Assembly: GCA_024226235.1 (NCBI GenBank)
Contig: JAAELW010000228.1
Location: forward strand, 1 to 62,960
DNA length: 62,960 bases
Source: a bacterium
GTDB taxonomy: Bacteria; Myxococcota_A; UBA9160; UBA6930
Direction: 5' to 3'
How positions within the stretch are numbered: the stretch's first letter is position 1; each line of letters begins with the position of its first letter. Under the pieces are notes generated by a model. The model was given only the letters and a program-made list of their open reading frames with translations. It searched no databases and was not told the origin of the DNA. A program made the translations under genes and the position numbers. Below, in pieces: positions 38,036-43,700 of this stretch.

Positions 38036-38108
38036 AGCCCACAAGTGAATTGTGAACTCCGGCCCCGCGGGTTCATGAACACCGGCCCCGCGGGTTCAGT
38101 TGTGGGCT
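38036..38108. repeat. Composite element: 14-bp imperfect inverted repeats around two 23-bp direct repeats
   Basis: AGCCCACAAGTGAA (38036-49) / TTCAGTTGTGGGCT (38095-108); TGAACTCCGGCCCCGCGGGTTCA (38053-75) and TGAACACCGGCCCCGCGGGTTCA (38076-98). Confidence 0.8.
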
Positions 38109-41100
38109 ACCAGGTATCGATGCAGGGGCGTTTCTTGCCTGGCCGGGGGGGTGGAGGGGGAGCCGAGCGCAGTGCGCTCATCACCCAGGTGCGGGAGCTG
38201 GCCGGGTCGATGACGTCGTCGATCTCGAAGGTCGATGCGGTGTTGAGGGCCTTCCCGTGCTCGTACATCCGGGCAACCATTTCGTCGTAGAGGACGCGGC
38301 GTTTGGCCGGATCCTGTTCTGCGGCCAACTCTTTGCGGTAGCCGAGCTTCACGGCACCTTCGAGGCCCATGCCTCCGAATTCACCCGTCGGCCAGGCCAC
38401 GGTGAACAGGCCCGCTTTGAAGCTTCCGCCCGCCATGGCCTGGGCGCCCAGGCCGTAGCCCTTGCGCAGCACGATCGTGAAGAAGGGCACGCTCACGCTG
38501 GCGGCGGTCACGAACATGCGGCTGGCGTGACGGACCAGCGCCGTCTTTTCTGCCTCGGGGCCGACCATGATACCGGGTGTATCGCAGAGGAAGAGGATCG
38601 GCAGGTCGAACGCATCGCAGAGCTGCATGAAGCGCGCGGCCTTGTCGGCGCCATCGCTGTCGATGGCTCCTGCCAGGTGGGTCGGGTTGTTCGCAATGAT
38701 GCCGAGTGGGCGACCCTCTACGCGCGCAAGAGCAGTGACCATTCCGGGACCGAAGCCCCGGCGCAGCTCGAGCACTGAACCGGTATCGGCCAGTGTCTCG
38801 AGCACTTCGCGAACGTCGTAGATGCGTAGCCGGTTCTCCGGAATCGCACTGCGCAGCAGACGCTGATCGGCGCACTCCCAGTCTGCCAGTGAGCCCTGGA
38901 AGTAGGAGAGATATTGCTTGGCAACCCGCACGGCCTCGGCTTCGTCGGCGACGGGAATGTCGACGACACCGCTCGGCACCTGGTCGGACATCGGACCGAC
39001 TTCCTCGGGTCGGAACACTCCGAGTCCGCCACCCTCGATCATCGCGGGGCCACCCATCCCGATGTTCGAGCCCTCGGTCGCGATCACGACATCACAGCAG
39101 CCGAGCAGCGCTGCGTTGCCGGCAAAGCAACGACCCGAGGTGATGCCCACCAGCGGCACCAGGCCCGACAGCCGTGCAAAGAAGTAGAAGGCCATGCAAT
39201 CGAGGCCGGCCACCCCCACGCCGTCCGTATCCCCTGGGCGACCGCCGCCGCCCTCGGTCAGGATGACCAGGGGAATCCGCATGTCCTCGGCCAACTCGAA
39301 CATGCGGTCCTTCTTGCGGTGGTTCTGCAAACCCTGGGTCCCGGCAAGCACTGTGTAGTCGTAGGAGAGGGCCACGCAGCGCGAGGCCATTTCTCCGAAT
39401 TCGTCACCATTCACGCTGCCGATGCCCGCCACCATGCCGTCGGCGGGAGTGCGCCGGATCAGATCGTCGAGGCTTCGCCGCCGGCGTTGCGCCGCGATGA
39501 CGACCGCACCGTACTCGACGAAGGAGCCTGGATCGCACAGATCTTCCAGGTTCTCTCGGGCCGTTCGCTGCCCGGTCTTGCGCCGGCGAGCGACGGCCTC
39601 GGGCCGCGCCCCGTCGAAACCCAGCTCATGACGCTGTTGGGTCTCGGCCAGATCCGGCCGGACATGGTCGAGATCGATGGCCTCCGGCTGATCGACCACC
39701 CGATGATCGACATCGGCTTCTTCGAGAAAGAGCAGAGGGTGCCCCTCCAACACCGTGTCTCCCGGAGCCACGGCCAGCGCCCGCACGAACCCGCTGCGAT
39801 CGGACGCGATGACGTGCTCCATCTTCATCGCCTCCATCACCAGCAGCGGTTGCTCCCGGGCGATGGTGTCTCCGACAGCGACATCCACACTCACGATGGT
39901 GCCTTGAAGGGGCGCGGGAACAGGCTCGGAACCAAGCGGCCCGGCCGCGGATGGTTTGTGAACGGCAGGCTCGTCGCTCACTTGCTGCACAGACACGGGC
40001 ACCCCCTTGCCGTGCTCCAGCACAGCCAGGGGATCGTTGCGGTCGAGGCGAGCGCCGGCGAACCCGGCTTCCCCGACCTGCTGCAGGGAATCGGTCGCCG
40101 GGATCGCCGCCAGCAGCTCCGAAAGGTGCGCCTCGACGAAGCGGGTCGTCACCCGGTTCGCAGCGACCTCCGGATGCGACAGCAGGCTTCGAAGCAAAGG
40201 CAAATTGGTCCGTGTGCCCTCGATCCGGAACTCGCCCAGTGCGCGGAGAGCCCTCGCGACCACAGCCCCGAATTCGCCCGAAGGCGAATGGGCGACGAGC
40301 TTCGCCAGCAGGGAATCGAAACGCGGGTTCGTCGCGTAGCCGGTGTAGCCGTAGCCATCCACCCGGATGCCGGGGCCTGCGGGGGGCTCGTAGGCCGTCA
40401 ACACACCGCCCGATGGCCGCAGTGTGCCATCCTCGGCCAGGGTTTCCAGATTGACCCGCGCTTGAAGTGCGAAACCGCGGGGCGCCGGTACATCCTGCTG
40501 ACGAAGCCCCAGGTCTTCGAGCGTTGCGCCGCCGGCGATCCGAAGCTGCACCGCCACGAGATCGACACCCATCACCTCTTCGGTCACGGTGTGCTCCACC
40601 TGCAACCGTGGGTTGGCTTCGATGAAGGCCCAGCCGCCATCCGCCTCGGCATCGAGCAGGAACTCGAACGTGCCGAGGCTGCGGTAGCCGACTTCCCGGG
40701 CCATACGGACGGCAGCTTCGGCGAGCTGTGTGCGCAACCCATTCGACAGGGTCGGACTCGGTGCGATCTCGATCAGCTTCTGGTGCCGGCGCTGCAGGCT
40801 GCACTCGCGCTCGCCGAGCTGCACGATACCGCCCTGACCATCGGCCACGATCTGGATCTCCAGATGGCGAGCAGCGGGCATCAGCCGCTCGACGTAGAGC
40901 GCGTCGTTTCCAAAGGCCGCTCCGGCCTCGGACGCACAACGCGCCCAGACCGCTTCCAGGGCTTCGGCATCCTCCACCACGCGCATTCCGCGGCCGCCAC
41001 CGCCTGCGAGCGCCTTGACCATCACCTGCCCGCCCTCACCTAGCGAAGACAGGAATTCGCGTGCCTCGTCGAGACTGGTCGGCCCGCTGGTTCCGGGCAA

Positions 41101-41481
41101 GACGGGCACTCCAGAGCGCTCGGCCAGCGAACGGGCGGCGGTCTTGTCACCGAGGGCCAGCAGGGTTTCCGACCGCGGGCCGATCCAGACGATGCCCGCC
41201 TCTTCGCAGGCATGCGCCAGCTCCGCGCTCTCGCTCAACAGCCCGTAGCCCGGATGCAGCGCATCGCATCCCGTCTCACGAGCCGCTGCGACGAGCGCTG
41301 GGGCATCCAGGTACGCTGCCGGCCCGGTGCCCGACAGTGCGTGGGTCTCGTCGGCCATGCGCAAGTGAAGGCCGGATGCATCGTCCGGCGAAGCCACCGC
41401 AACCGATCGGATGCCCAGCTCTCCTGCAGCGCGCAGCACGCGCACGGCGACTTCGCCGCGATTCGCAACCAGCAGCTTCAT
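38107..41481 (-). CDS. Single-chain biotin-dependent acyl-CoA carboxylase (BC-BCCP-CT fusion)
   Basis: KLLVANRGE, HPGYG, GGGGRGMR, ECSLQRRHQK, RLQVEH; EAMKM biotinyl-Lys; DYTVLAGTQG, EGGGGRPGD and CDTPGIMVG. Confidence 0.95.
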   Translation of the reverse strand: MKLLVANRGEVAVRVLRAAGELGIRSVAVASPDDASGLHLRMADETHALSGTGPAAYLDAPALVAAARETGCDALHPGYGLLSESAELAHACEEAGIVWIGPRSETLLALGDKTAARSLAERSGVPVLPGTSGPTSLDEAREFLSSLGEGGQVMVKALAGGGGRGMRVVEDAEALEAVWARCASEAGAAFGNDALYVERLMPAARHLEIQIVADGQGGIVQLGERECSLQRRHQKLIEIAPSPTLSNGLRTQLAEAAVRMAREVGYRSLGTFEFLLDAEADGGWAFIEANPRLQVEHTVTEEVMGVDLVAVQLRIAGGATLEDLGLRQQDVPAPRGFALQARVNLETLAEDGTLRPSGGVLTAYEPPAGPGIRVDGYGYTGYATNPRFDSLLAKLVAHSPSGEFGAVVARALRALGEFRIEGTRTNLPLLRSLLSHPEVAANRVTTRFVEAHLSELLAAIPATDSLQQVGEAGFAGARLDRNDPLAVLEHGKGVPVSVQQVSDEPAVHKPSAAGPLGSEPVPAPLQGTIVSVDVAVGDTIAREQPLLVMEAMKMEHVIASDRSGFVRALAVAPGDTVLEGHPLLFLEEADVDHRVVDQPEAIDLDHVRPDLAETQQRHELGFDGARPEAVARRRKTGQRTARENLEDLCDPGSFVEYGAVVIAAQRRRRSLDDLIRRTPADGMVAGIGSVNGDEFGEMASRCVALSYDYTVLAGTQGLQNHRKKDRMFELAEDMRIPLVILTEGGGGRPGDTDGVGVAGLDCMAFYFFARLSGLVPLVGITSGRCFAGNAALLGCCDVVIATEGSNIGMGGPAMIEGGGLGVFRPEEVGPMSDQVPSGVVDIPVADEAEAVRVAKQYLSYFQGSLADWECADQRLLRSAIPENRLRIYDVREVLETLADTGSVLELRRGFGPGMVTALARVEGRPLGIIANNPTHLAGAIDSDGADKAARFMQLCDAFDLPILFLCDTPGIMVGPEAEKTALVRHASRMFVTAASVSVPFFTIVLRKGYGLGAQAMAGGSFKAGLFTVAWPTGEFGGMGLEGAVKLGYRKELAAEQDPAKRRVLYDEMVARMYEHGKALNTASTFEIDDVIDPASSRTWVMSALRSAPPPPPRPGKKRPCIDTW

Positions 41482-41493
41482 GACGCTAGGTCG

Positions 41494-42363
41494 TTACGTC
41501 CTTGCTTCTCGGCGTTTCTTCATCAGCGCGATGATCGGCGAGGGCTCGGCAGGATGCCATTTCGTCTGCTTGGGCTCCTCGTGCCAGACGAAGGGCAGGT
41601 GCTCGACGGTGCCCGGTTCTTTTGCGGTCTCGAACAGCGCAAGGCCTGCGCGCAGCACGCTCCCTTGGGTCTCGGTATCGCCCACATCACCGAAGGGGCG
41701 CCCGAACGGATGCTCGATGGCCGCGACCCGCGGCATTCCAATGGCGCGCTGGAACGGCCATAGCATGTTCAGCGTGACGGTCGGGATACCCCGCGCTTCG
41801 ATCTCTCGTGCGACCAGTCCCACGGACCGGCAACAATCGGGTCAAACCGGCGTGAGGAGCGCCAGGTCGACTTCCTCACTCCGCATGGCCTCCGCGATCT
41901 CAGGGGCACTCTTCTCCACCAGGTCGCTGGAATCGTTGCCCTGGAAACCCATAATGGAGTAGTGGCTCGGAGCGCTGGCACCCACGACGCCTTCGGCCAC
42001 GAGCTCTCGCAGCCGGTCGACCGGAAGCGCCACGTTCAGGTCCCGCTCCACGTACCCCGTATCGATGTGCAGATGGTTCGCATCGATCTCTGCAGCAGTG
42101 GCGTCCGCTCGCAGCCGACGCCAGCTGGAATCTCCCCGGGTCGGATTCTGGCGCTCGAACTCCATGTCGAAGGGTGTGTCTCCCTTCATCGAGAGGCCGG
42201 ACGTCGAAAGCAGCGCCACTTTCGACTGGGCGAGCGGCTTGGTCACCGGCGTCCATGGAATCGGCGGATGATTCGGCTCGTCTGGGATCCCTCCCGAGAG
42301 GATCCTCTCGAGGAACGAACCGGCGAATCGCCACGGATCGACTTCGCGGAGTGTGTTGTTCAT
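41494..42363 (-). CDS. Selenoprotein of the PrdB/GrdB (proline/glycine reductase selenoprotein B) family; Sec at TGA 41844-41842
   Basis: ORFs 41842..42363 and 41494..41823 share a frame, and read-through gives LLTPV-U-PDCCRSVGLVAREIEARGIPTV. Family motifs lie on both sides (KVALLSTSG, GDSSWR, DLNVALP, PRVAA, HPFGRPFG); SECIS-like hairpin. Confidence 0.88.
41813..41831 (-). promoter_or_regulatory. Putative bacterial SECIS element
   Basis: mRNA reads UGA-CCCGAUUGUU-GCCGGUCC-GUG-GGACUGGU: an 8-bp stem (2 G-U) whose loop starts with G 18 nt after the UGA. Confidence 0.7.
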
Positions 42364-42391: not shown

Positions 42392-43195
42392 TCAGTCTTT
42401 GAACTCCGGCTTGCGCCCTTCCTTGCGGGCCCGGGTGGCCTCTTCGAAGTTCTGGGTCGTGAGCCGCACGAAGAGCTGGGTGTGCTTCTCCATCTCGATC
42501 GCTGCGTCCAGGCTTCCGGTCTCGAGACCCGCCCAGATCATCCGCTTCGTGAGCTGCACGCCCTGGGTGCTCCAGCCGTTGATCTGATCGGCGAGGGCCA
42601 GGGCGGCGTCCATCAGCTCTGCGTCGGGGACGGTCTTCGACACCAGGCCGATCTCCGCTGCCTCTTGCGCAGAAACGTCCCGCCCGGAGAGCATGATCTC
42701 GAATGCGCGGCTGCTCCCGATGGCGCGCGGCAACAGGAAGCTCACGCCCAGCTCCGTGGCCGTGAGTCCGTTGTTGATGCCTGCGGCACGAAAGTAGGCC
42801 GACTCCGCCGCGATCCGCACATCCGCCCCCAGCGTGAGGCACATGCCGCCGCCGATCGCCGCCCCGTTGACCGCACAGATCACCGGCTGAGGCATGCGCC
42901 GCAGAGCCGGCACCAGGTCGGACAAGATCGTCATCGAGCGGGTGGCGATCCGTGTGAGCGTCATGCCTTCGATGTCCGGCGGGGGCTCGGTGCCCTGGGT
43001 GTCTGCCCCGGAGCAGAACCCGCGGCCCGTTCCGGTGAGAACCACGCACCAGGTGTCAGAATCCGCCGCCACCTCTTCGATCGCTTCGTGCAGCGGCATC
43101 GCCAGCTCGAAGGCCAGCGAGTTCATCCGCTCGGGCCGATCGAGGACGATCACGCTGGTATGGAGACCCGGTTTTTCGATGCGGACATGACTCAT
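42392..43195 (-). CDS. Enoyl-CoA hydratase/isomerase
   Basis: LDRPERMN, GRGFCSGAD, AVNGAAIGGG and ELGVSFLLPR. Confidence 0.9.
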   Translation of the reverse strand: MSHVRIEKPGLHTSVIVLDRPERMNSLAFELAMPLHEAIEEVAADSDTWCVVLTGTGRGFCSGADTQGTEPPPDIEGMTLTRIATRSMTILSDLVPALRRMPQPVICAVNGAAIGGGMCLTLGADVRIAAESAYFRAAGINNGLTATELGVSFLLPRAIGSSRAFEIMLSGRDVSAQEAAEIGLVSKTVPDAELMDAALALADQINGWSTQGVQLTKRMIWAGLETGSLDAAIEMEKHTQLFVRLTTQNFEEATRARKEGRKPEFKD

Positions 43196-43204
43196 CGCCG
43201 CGGC

Positions 43205-43651
43205 CTAGAAGAGGATCGAAAGGGCCGAAGCCACTGCCATCCAGAGCGTGATCACGAAACCGATCGCCCAGGCTGCGGTTCGATGCGGCATCAGTCCCTT
43301 CATGTAGAGGACGAGATGCAGAATGCGCCCGATCGGAAAACCCGCGAAGCAGATCCATAGACCGAGTGTGCTCGGCTGGGTGAGTGCATAGACGAACCCC
43401 ACCAACACGAAGGGCAGACCCGCTTCCAGATCGTTCAGGTGCGCGCGCCGCGCACGCTCGACCTCTTCGTCGGTGGCAGTCTGGGGTTCGAGCTTCTGCA
43501 TCTCGTAGTCTTCGGGCGAGGCGAAGACATTCTTTCGGATTCGAATCGAGCTGACGACCATGCCCGTCACCAGGGTCTTCAGTGCCACCACGATGCACGA
43601 AAGCGCCCAAGCCTTGATGGCGGGGTTCGAGAGAAGCTGTTCCCAGAGCAT
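43205..43651 (-). CDS. MAPEG family protein (MGST1/PTGES-like)
   Basis: VFASPED and VERARRAHLNDLE motifs; GRILH; AGGAGG RBS. Confidence 0.88.
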   Translation of the reverse strand: MLWEQLLSNPAIKAWALSCIVVALKTLVTGMVVSSIRIRKNVFASPEDYEMQKLEPQTATDEEVERARRAHLNDLEAGLPFVLVGFVYALTQPSTLGLWICFAGFPIGRILHLVLYMKGLMPHRTAAWAIGFVITLWMAVASALSILF

Positions 43652-43700
43652 GGACGATCCTCCTGCTGAGGGCGACGCTAGCACGTACGCTTGGCGCGAT

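Follow-up and report, generated by a model that had tools for sequence, protein, structure and literature searches.

Two open reading frames (ORFs) on the minus strand of the DNA analysed here, a stretch of 62,960 nucleotides referred to below as the window, lie in the same frame and are separated by a single TGA triplet. This locus raises the question of whether the triplet ends one protein, or whether it is a selenocysteine (Sec) codon within one longer gene and, if so, what kind of selenoprotein this gene encodes.

Reading frame and database copies

With translation table 11, the two minus-strand ORFs are listed as proteins of 173 aa (41842..42363) and 109 aa (41494..41823). Translation of 41494-42363 on the minus strand with TGA read as U gives one frame of 289 residues, which ends with TAA and in which TGA occurs only once, at codon 174, within the local sequence ...LLTPV-U-PDC-CRSVGLV.... 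The initial annotation of this DNA, which had described two same-frame ORFs split by a single TGA and joined them to a 289-aa protein, agrees with this translation. The predicted gene and the codon in question are:

41494..42363, minus strand: predicted gene of a PrdB-like selenoprotein (start ATG at 42363; 289 codons, with Sec at codon 174; TAA at 41494-41496)
41842..41844, minus strand: UGA codon 174, predicted Sec (U-P-D-C motif), assigned from column conservation and Cys homologues

The tblastn matches of the relatives span the TGA and cover residues 1-289. In a collection of 5.8 billion proteins, all of the best 120 hits listed are 169-188 aa in length, stop at the TGA and cover 57-60% of the query, as had been expected if standard annotation yields fragments, and these copies of approximately 170 aa are labelled 'hypothetical protein' or, by JGI, 'D-proline reductase (dithiol) PrdB'. 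As judged from its sequence, 41494-42363 on the minus strand is a genuine Sec-containing gene of a PrdB-like family, which has been halved at the UGA by automatic annotation. The gene and hundreds of its relatives are thus represented in public databases only by such fragments, under one or the other of these names, and annotation pipelines still drop the catalytic half of a common selenoprotein.

Family assignment and search for partner subunits

The protein matches the Pfam family GRDB (PF07355) with 35.1 bits (E 1.2e-8, residues 32-171), which is above the gathering threshold of 22, and the gene was likewise above the cut-off when the whole genome was searched with PF07355. Its best NCBIfam match is TIGR04483 (D_pro_red_PrdB) with 158.6 bits, in which residues 31-260 align with positions 14-234 of the 238-position model; this score lies below the equivalog cut-off of 300 bits. 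The score of 56.1 bits with TIGR01918 (various_sel_PB) is also below the subfamily cut-off of that model, 65.45 bits. Three PrdB-like copies are present in this genome and up to five in its relatives, all of them with a TGA and in varied contexts.

D-proline reductase is expected to have PrdA encoded beside prdB. The genome, an assembly of 564 contigs with 5.07 Mb and a completeness of 90.4%, gave no match to PrdA (TIGR04480) or to Gly_reductase (PF09338), the profiles being silent in 14 control genomes as well, and GrdA (PF04723) was also without a match in it, again with a silent control. PF09338 had no match in five relatives, which include single-contig, 2-contig and 3-contig assemblies (controls silent). 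A Pfam scan of the 137 nearest neighbours of 73 loci detected neither PF09338 nor a PrdA-like protein nor any Prd or Grd component, and PrdA is hence not encoded beside the gene at any of these loci.

One might still argue that the gene codes for PrdB itself, the B subunit of a genuine D-proline reductase, whose pyruvoyl subunit PrdA is encoded elsewhere, as TIGR04483 is the best NCBIfam hit and is covered over nearly its whole length, close homologues carry the PrdB name at JGI, and the same name is used for the family in Table 2 of PMC2398784. We consider this very unlikely, given that the score falls short of the equivalog cut-off, that PrdA or PF09338 was found neither in the genome, nor in the relatives searched for PF09338, nor among the neighbouring genes, and that up to five paralogues per genome occur in varied contexts. 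As the protein scores below the PrdB cut-off, and as neither a partner of the PrdA or GrdA kind nor a conserved neighbour was found, it is probably not a D-proline reductase proper. The initial annotation had placed it in the PrdB/GrdB family, and membership in the GRDB/PrdB family stands, whereas an assignment to PrdB itself does not; 'PrdB-like' is the right label, because the equivalog cut-off is not reached and no PrdA partner was found.

Conservation of the UGA codon and of the protein downstream of it

A search for related loci yielded 39 loci from metagenome-assembled genomes (MAGs), which are mostly labelled as Myxococcota or Deltaproteobacteria. Full-length matches were obtained for 33 of these, and 32 of the 33 have an in-frame TGA at the same column; the 33rd, L053, has a frameshift upstream, yet it retains the TGA followed by the same hairpin, and both are also present in the partial locus L054. 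Four loci that end short of the TGA column (L055, L057-L059) were left out of the count, and the TGA is found at the same column in 34 of the 34 related loci that extend to it. No recognisable Sec motif was detected by pattern search in L056, a fragmentary match. The frameshift in L053 (L053:4001-4856, from a Chloroflexia-labelled MAG) is located around residue 125, with the TGA and the hairpin kept in the shifted frame, and is either an assembly indel or a sign of a recent pseudogene.

In a codon alignment of the window copy and 32 orthologues, all 33 rows have the TGA, and majority-residue conservation is 0.735 before and 0.788 after it. As far as this alignment indicates, the part of the protein downstream of the TGA is under purifying selection that is equal to or stronger than that on the part upstream. 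An even sample of the phylum (201 genomes) contained 30 genomes with matches at E <= 1e-10. Exactly one TGA is present in 62 of the 65 matches listed from this sample; one match with two TGAs is a paralogue from this genome, on contig C61, whose own stop lies inside the match, one has three TGAs, and one, an N-terminal fragment that stops short of the column, has none. The paralogue set that we assembled from 40 fetched members of these 65 matches and the two paralogues of this genome (n=42) is uniform, as all 42 have the TGA, followed by P-x-[C/D] and by a hairpin at the same offset.

Of the two paralogues in this genome, one is encoded at C61:39186-39932 on the plus strand (TGA at C61:39597, L061:1951-1998; motif IPV-U-PMC-N) and the other at C371:2038-2769 on the plus strand (TGA at C371:2443; motif VPL-U-PVC-H) of the assembly, which we refer to as G000. 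They share 33-37% identity with the window copy, and both carry the hairpin ACCAGAC-CGUGA-GUCUGGU, again at this offset. In seven of the 42 paralogues (L079, L081, L083, L086, L088, L098 and L100) the motif reads U-P-L-D-H, so that Asp replaces the resolving Cys of U-x-x-C, and this subfamily may use a different chemistry.

For more distant relatives, 1.84 billion representatives were searched exhaustively with phmmer, which gave 1692 hits. From these, 49 full-length hits with 26-39% identity were aligned with the query (50 rows). Among the 49 homologues, the Sec column is occupied by Cys in 35, Ser in five, Gly in four, Trp in two, and Asp, Asn and Thr in one each; the check for Cys or Sec at this column, called for when the locus was first described, therefore had a positive outcome. 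Cys177 is kept in 43 of the 50 rows, and three of the five invariant columns of the family (E189, R212 and G221) fall after the TGA. The two full-length homologues with Trp, P0161 and P0168, may represent Sec codons that were rendered as Trp by gene calling with code 4 or 25 on metagenome contigs.

Predicted structure

The protein was modelled with AlphaFold2 using the 50-sequence alignment (pLDDT 88, pTM 0.84). In the model, the parts before and after the TGA form one domain, with a pLDDT of at least 88 in each 10-residue block between residues 31 and 260. Sec174 is positioned between a strand (167-171) and a helix (175-190), at the N-terminus of the helix, in a Rossmann-like alpha/beta domain. 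Placement at a helix N-terminus is typical of redox-active CxxC and UxxC centres. No hits at E <= 1 were obtained with phmmer against PDB sequences and none at E <= 0.001 with Foldseek against the PDB, and a wide search with VIA-align returned generic Rossmann-like alpha/beta proteins only (LacI-type, SDR and periplasmic binding proteins, Z <= 9.3), so that the fold search provides no functional lead.

These results also bear on the idea that the locus consists of two separate functional genes, one for an N-terminal protein of 173 aa and one for a downstream protein of 109 aa. Both ORFs do exist under table 11 and fragments of around 170 aa fill the databases, but the full-length Cys homologues are single chains that run across the junction, more than half of the invariant columns lie in the downstream part, and the model folds both parts as one confidently predicted domain. 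Two independent genes are therefore extremely improbable, and a single gene that continues through codon 174 is the reading that we follow below.

The hairpin downstream of the UGA codon

The RNA 3' of the UGA is predicted to fold into a hairpin with an 8-bp stem (GCCGGUCC/GGACUGGU) and a GUG loop, which is extended by three lower pairs:

41809..41835, minus strand: predicted SECIS hairpin, from the fold, synonymous suppression and paralogue covariation
41824-41831 with 41813-41820, minus strand: upper 8-bp stem of the hairpin, with the GUG loop at 41821-41823 and three lower pairs

The base of the upper stem is 10 nt away from the UGA, and the distance from the A of the UGA to the G of the loop is exactly 18 nt. 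Taken alone, the 27-nt hairpin has a z-score of -2.66, with three of 200 shuffled sequences being as stable, and neither a 48-nt (z = -1.06) nor an 81-nt stretch (z = +0.16) is unusually stable. Since these longer stretches are unremarkable in GC-rich DNA, fold stability by itself is weak evidence, and the case for a hairpin beyond chance therefore rests on conservation and covariation.

Synonymous codon entropy, which was computed at amino-acid-conserved positions of the 33-row codon alignment, is 0.657 at codons 175-184 compared with 1.266 elsewhere (Mann-Whitney p = 4e-4), and these codons, which lie over the hairpin, are the lowest sliding window of the gene; for instance, Arg179 is encoded by CGG in 30/30 and Gly182 by GGA in 32/33 sequences. 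The helix is 95% paired in the close orthologues and shows 0 compensatory changes among them, and therefore the orthologues provide evidence of conservation, with covariation coming from the paralogue subfamilies only. To describe the latter, we used a hairpin alignment of 54 rows, made up of the window copy, 12 of the 32 orthologue loci, the C61 paralogue (L061) and the 40 fetched paralogues; the 12 orthologue loci were hand-picked for variants, and the other 20, which have near-identical hairpins, were left out. In this alignment the 8-bp stem is 90% paired and in five of the eight pairs both partners have changed (62 cells), with far fewer independent covariation events than cells, because the pair types track the paralogue subfamilies. 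The covariation score is 0.453, compared with 0.175 after shuffling (reached by 0 of 500 shuffled alignments) and with at most 0.136 in slid controls. Pair 19-27, which is UA in 21, AU in 19 and GC in 12 sequences, joins the first base of codon 180 (Ser/Thr/Ala) to the wobble base of codon 182, and in pair 15-31 (CG 34, UA 14, GC 4) the wobble position of codon 178 is coupled with the first position of codon 184 (Val/Ile). As wobble bases are coupled here to the first positions of other codons, selection on the protein does not explain these two pairs. The first base of the loop is an invariant G across the 54 rows and the next base is U in at least 90%.

An Rfam scan of 41650-41950 by E-value returned no SECIS family, the only hit being noise (mir-9441, E 9.3). 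[quoted passage not shown] A hairpin with a G-initiated loop 18 nt downstream had already been noticed in the initial annotation; its fold is reproduced here, and it gains support from the synonymous suppression and from the compensatory changes among the paralogues.

It could be objected that the TGA is a nonsense codon in a once-intact Cys-form gene, that is, a pseudogene or an assembly error, and gene callers indeed output two pieces; we give this next to no credence, as the same TGA is present in every related locus that extends to the column, purifying selection downstream of it appears equal or stronger, and a conserved RNA hairpin with covariation follows it.

Selenocysteine machinery and genetic code

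The suggestion that the machinery for Sec incorporation should be encoded elsewhere in the genome proved correct. In profile searches, selA (508.9 bits), selB (289.8 bits) and selD (254.7 bits) all scored over their cut-offs, and a tRNA-Sec was found with RF01852 (67.7 bits, over the cut-off), which ARAGORN also reports as tRNA-SeC with the anticodon tca, so that the genome has the complete set that defines the Sec-decoding trait. In addition, selB is present in five of the five relatives examined that carry the gene.

TGA is the commonest stop codon of this genome and ends 685 of 1167 long coding-like ORFs; in the window, it terminates four of the nine genes checked, all four supported by Pfam and among them the adjacent hydratase gene. 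A genome-wide reassignment of TGA to Trp or Gly (codes 4 or 25), with a residue other than Sec at position 174, finds some echo in the W of the distant homologues P0161 and P0168, but is effectively excluded by this use of TGA as a terminator and runs counter to the full Sec machinery in the genome.

Gene neighbourhood

The selenoprotein gene lies in a tight run of genes on the same strand, in the order MAPEG, enoyl-CoA hydratase, selenoprotein and carboxylase, with gaps of 9, 28 and 12 nt:

43205..43684, minus strand: membrane protein of the MAPEG family (glutathione-transferase type), upstream of the hydratase gene across the 9-nt gap
42392..43195, minus strand: enoyl-CoA hydratase/isomerase with a TGA stop, upstream neighbour across the 28-nt gap; adjacency kept only in two close relatives (L022, L030)
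38107..41481, minus strand: fused biotin carboxylase-BCCP-carboxyltransferase of 1124 aa, downstream across the 12-nt gap; downstream only in three close relatives (L021, L022, L030)

The run is kept in part, and in three close relatives only; the MAPEG gene is also found upstream in L021 and L022, and adjoins one paralogue (L082). The product of 38107-41481 on the minus strand combines the domains of an acyl-CoA carboxylase in a single polypeptide, as an all-in-one enzyme. All-versus-all clustering of the ORFs of 34 loci and clustering of the neighbours of 75 loci revealed no neighbour family that occurs in more than six of the 75. The Pfam scan of the 137 nearest neighbours found scattered acyl-CoA enzymes (hydratases, thiolases, CoA-transferases and carboxylases), as well as MAPEG, GFA, VTT/DedA and flavin disulfide-oxidoreductase proteins. 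These neighbours are too variable to indicate a substrate, and the context in the window gives a weak hint at acyl-CoA or glutathione metabolism.

There is a weak glutathione theme, as MAPEG genes are near PrdB-like genes in four loci (the window, L021, L022 and L082), GFA (glutathione-dependent formaldehyde-activating) proteins are neighbours in two and a gamma-glutamyltranspeptidase in one. At L097:3429-4907 (plus strand), a paralogue adjoins a gene for a SelO-family protein adenylyltransferase. SelO is a selenoprotein family in eukaryotes.

One might speculate that the PrdB-like selenoproteins of these Myxococcota-type bacteria are a radiating, PrdA-independent family rather than Stickland proline reductases, and that the orthologue in the window, co-transcribed with the genes for MAPEG, enoyl-CoA hydratase and the fused acyl-CoA carboxylase, catalyses a selenium-dependent reduction within the acyl-CoA or glutathione-linked metabolism of non-fermenting bacteria. 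In this full form, we regard the proposal as tentative and rather unlikely to be correct.

Proposed mechanism

Taken together, we are highly confident that the locus is a single gene and encodes a PrdB-like selenoprotein of 289 residues, in which Sec would be inserted at UGA-174 with the help of SelB, and which is most likely a stand-alone selenol/thiol oxidoreductase and not the B subunit of a Stickland D-proline reductase. The stand-alone function is suggested because searches of the genome and of the surroundings of the relatives examined detected neither a pyruvoyl subunit of the PrdA type nor GrdA. During translation, the hairpin 10 nt after UGA-174, with its GU-containing apical loop, would recruit SelB with Sec-tRNA(Sec), and the conserved signals and the machinery suggest that UGA-174 is then decoded as selenocysteine and not as a stop. 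Based on the motif and the model, we propose that the selenolate of Sec174 attacks the substrate and that Cys177, located three residues after it, resolves the adduct, which would lead to the formation of a selenenyl-sulfide. A thiol system, possibly thioredoxin or glutathione, could in turn reduce the selenenyl-sulfide.

Comparison with known systems

The SECIS element of E. coli fdhF consists of a minimal upper stem-loop around 11 nt from the UGA, and the G and U of its loop contact SelB. The hairpin described here is similar to this Escherichia coli fdhF-type SECIS in that it is part of the coding sequence and directly follows the UGA, has a loop G followed by U and is separated from the UGA by a spacer of about 10-11 nt. 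It differs from the fdhF type in the size of the loop, which is 3 nt long in the orthologues of this group (GUG) and 5 nt long in paralogues (e.g. CGUGA, GGUCG), and in that no bulged U is evident. This covariation-supported SECIS of the family could be used to seed a covariance model, with which miscalled genes could be corrected.

With GrdB, GrdF and GrdH (TIGR01917, TIGR01918), the protein shares the C-terminal GRDB domain with Sec in the same place (56-57 bits, approximately positions 216-407 of models of 431-435), whereas the N-terminal half of GrdB (around 215 residues) is missing and the score is below the TIGR01918 cut-off. Compared with the clostridial D-proline reductase subunit PrdB (TIGR04483), reportedly described by Kabisch et al. 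in 1999 (cited in PMC13188914), the protein is homologous along almost the full length of PrdB, and in both the Sec belongs to a U-x-x-C motif in the corresponding place. Unlike clostridial PrdB, the protein has N- and C-terminal extensions (289 aa compared with the 238-position model), does not reach the equivalog cut-off and is not encoded with PrdA, PrdC or PrdD, its paralogues being dispersed in Myxococcota-type MAGs with no prd operon.

The initial annotation spoke of a hidden selenoprotein, which holds true in so far as the gene is a genuine Sec gene; the family is not new and was published in 2005. A selenoprotein family termed 'Proline reductase PrdB' (pfam07355, UxxC) is reported by Zhang, Fomenko and Gladyshev in 2005 (PMC1088965) and by Zhang and Gladyshev in 2008 (PMC2398784). 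With 42 genes it is the third most abundant selenoprotein family in the Sargasso Sea, and the Global Ocean Sampling (GOS) metagenomes contain 235 of its selenoproteins beside 110 homologues with Cys. A further paper lists five selenoprotein copies of 'Proline reductase (PR)' and no Cys homologue for the Olavius delta-1 symbiont (PMC1976440), so that several copies per deltaproteobacterial-type genome are already in print. The family was named after proline reductase with no PrdA partner being shown, and the word 'prdA' occurs 0 times in PMC1088965. Our search for literature on selenoproteins in Myxococcota returned only unrelated papers. For these organisms, the term 'proline reductase', under which one of the most abundant marine selenoprotein families is filed, is probably misleading.

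The protein described here has the properties by which Table 2 of PMC2398784 defines the family, namely a match to pfam07355, the motif U174-P-D-C177 and Cys at the Sec column in 35 of 49 distant homologues. It resembles the Zhang-Gladyshev 'Proline reductase PrdB' in its Pfam family, in its U-x-x-C motif and in the bacterial SECIS right after the UGA, and further shared features are the large excess of Sec over Cys forms, the several copies per genome and the common occurrence in marine metagenomes. Nothing essential differs between the two, apart from the fact that a PrdA partner was sought here and not found, and the gene is thus one more member of a family that has been in print since 2005.
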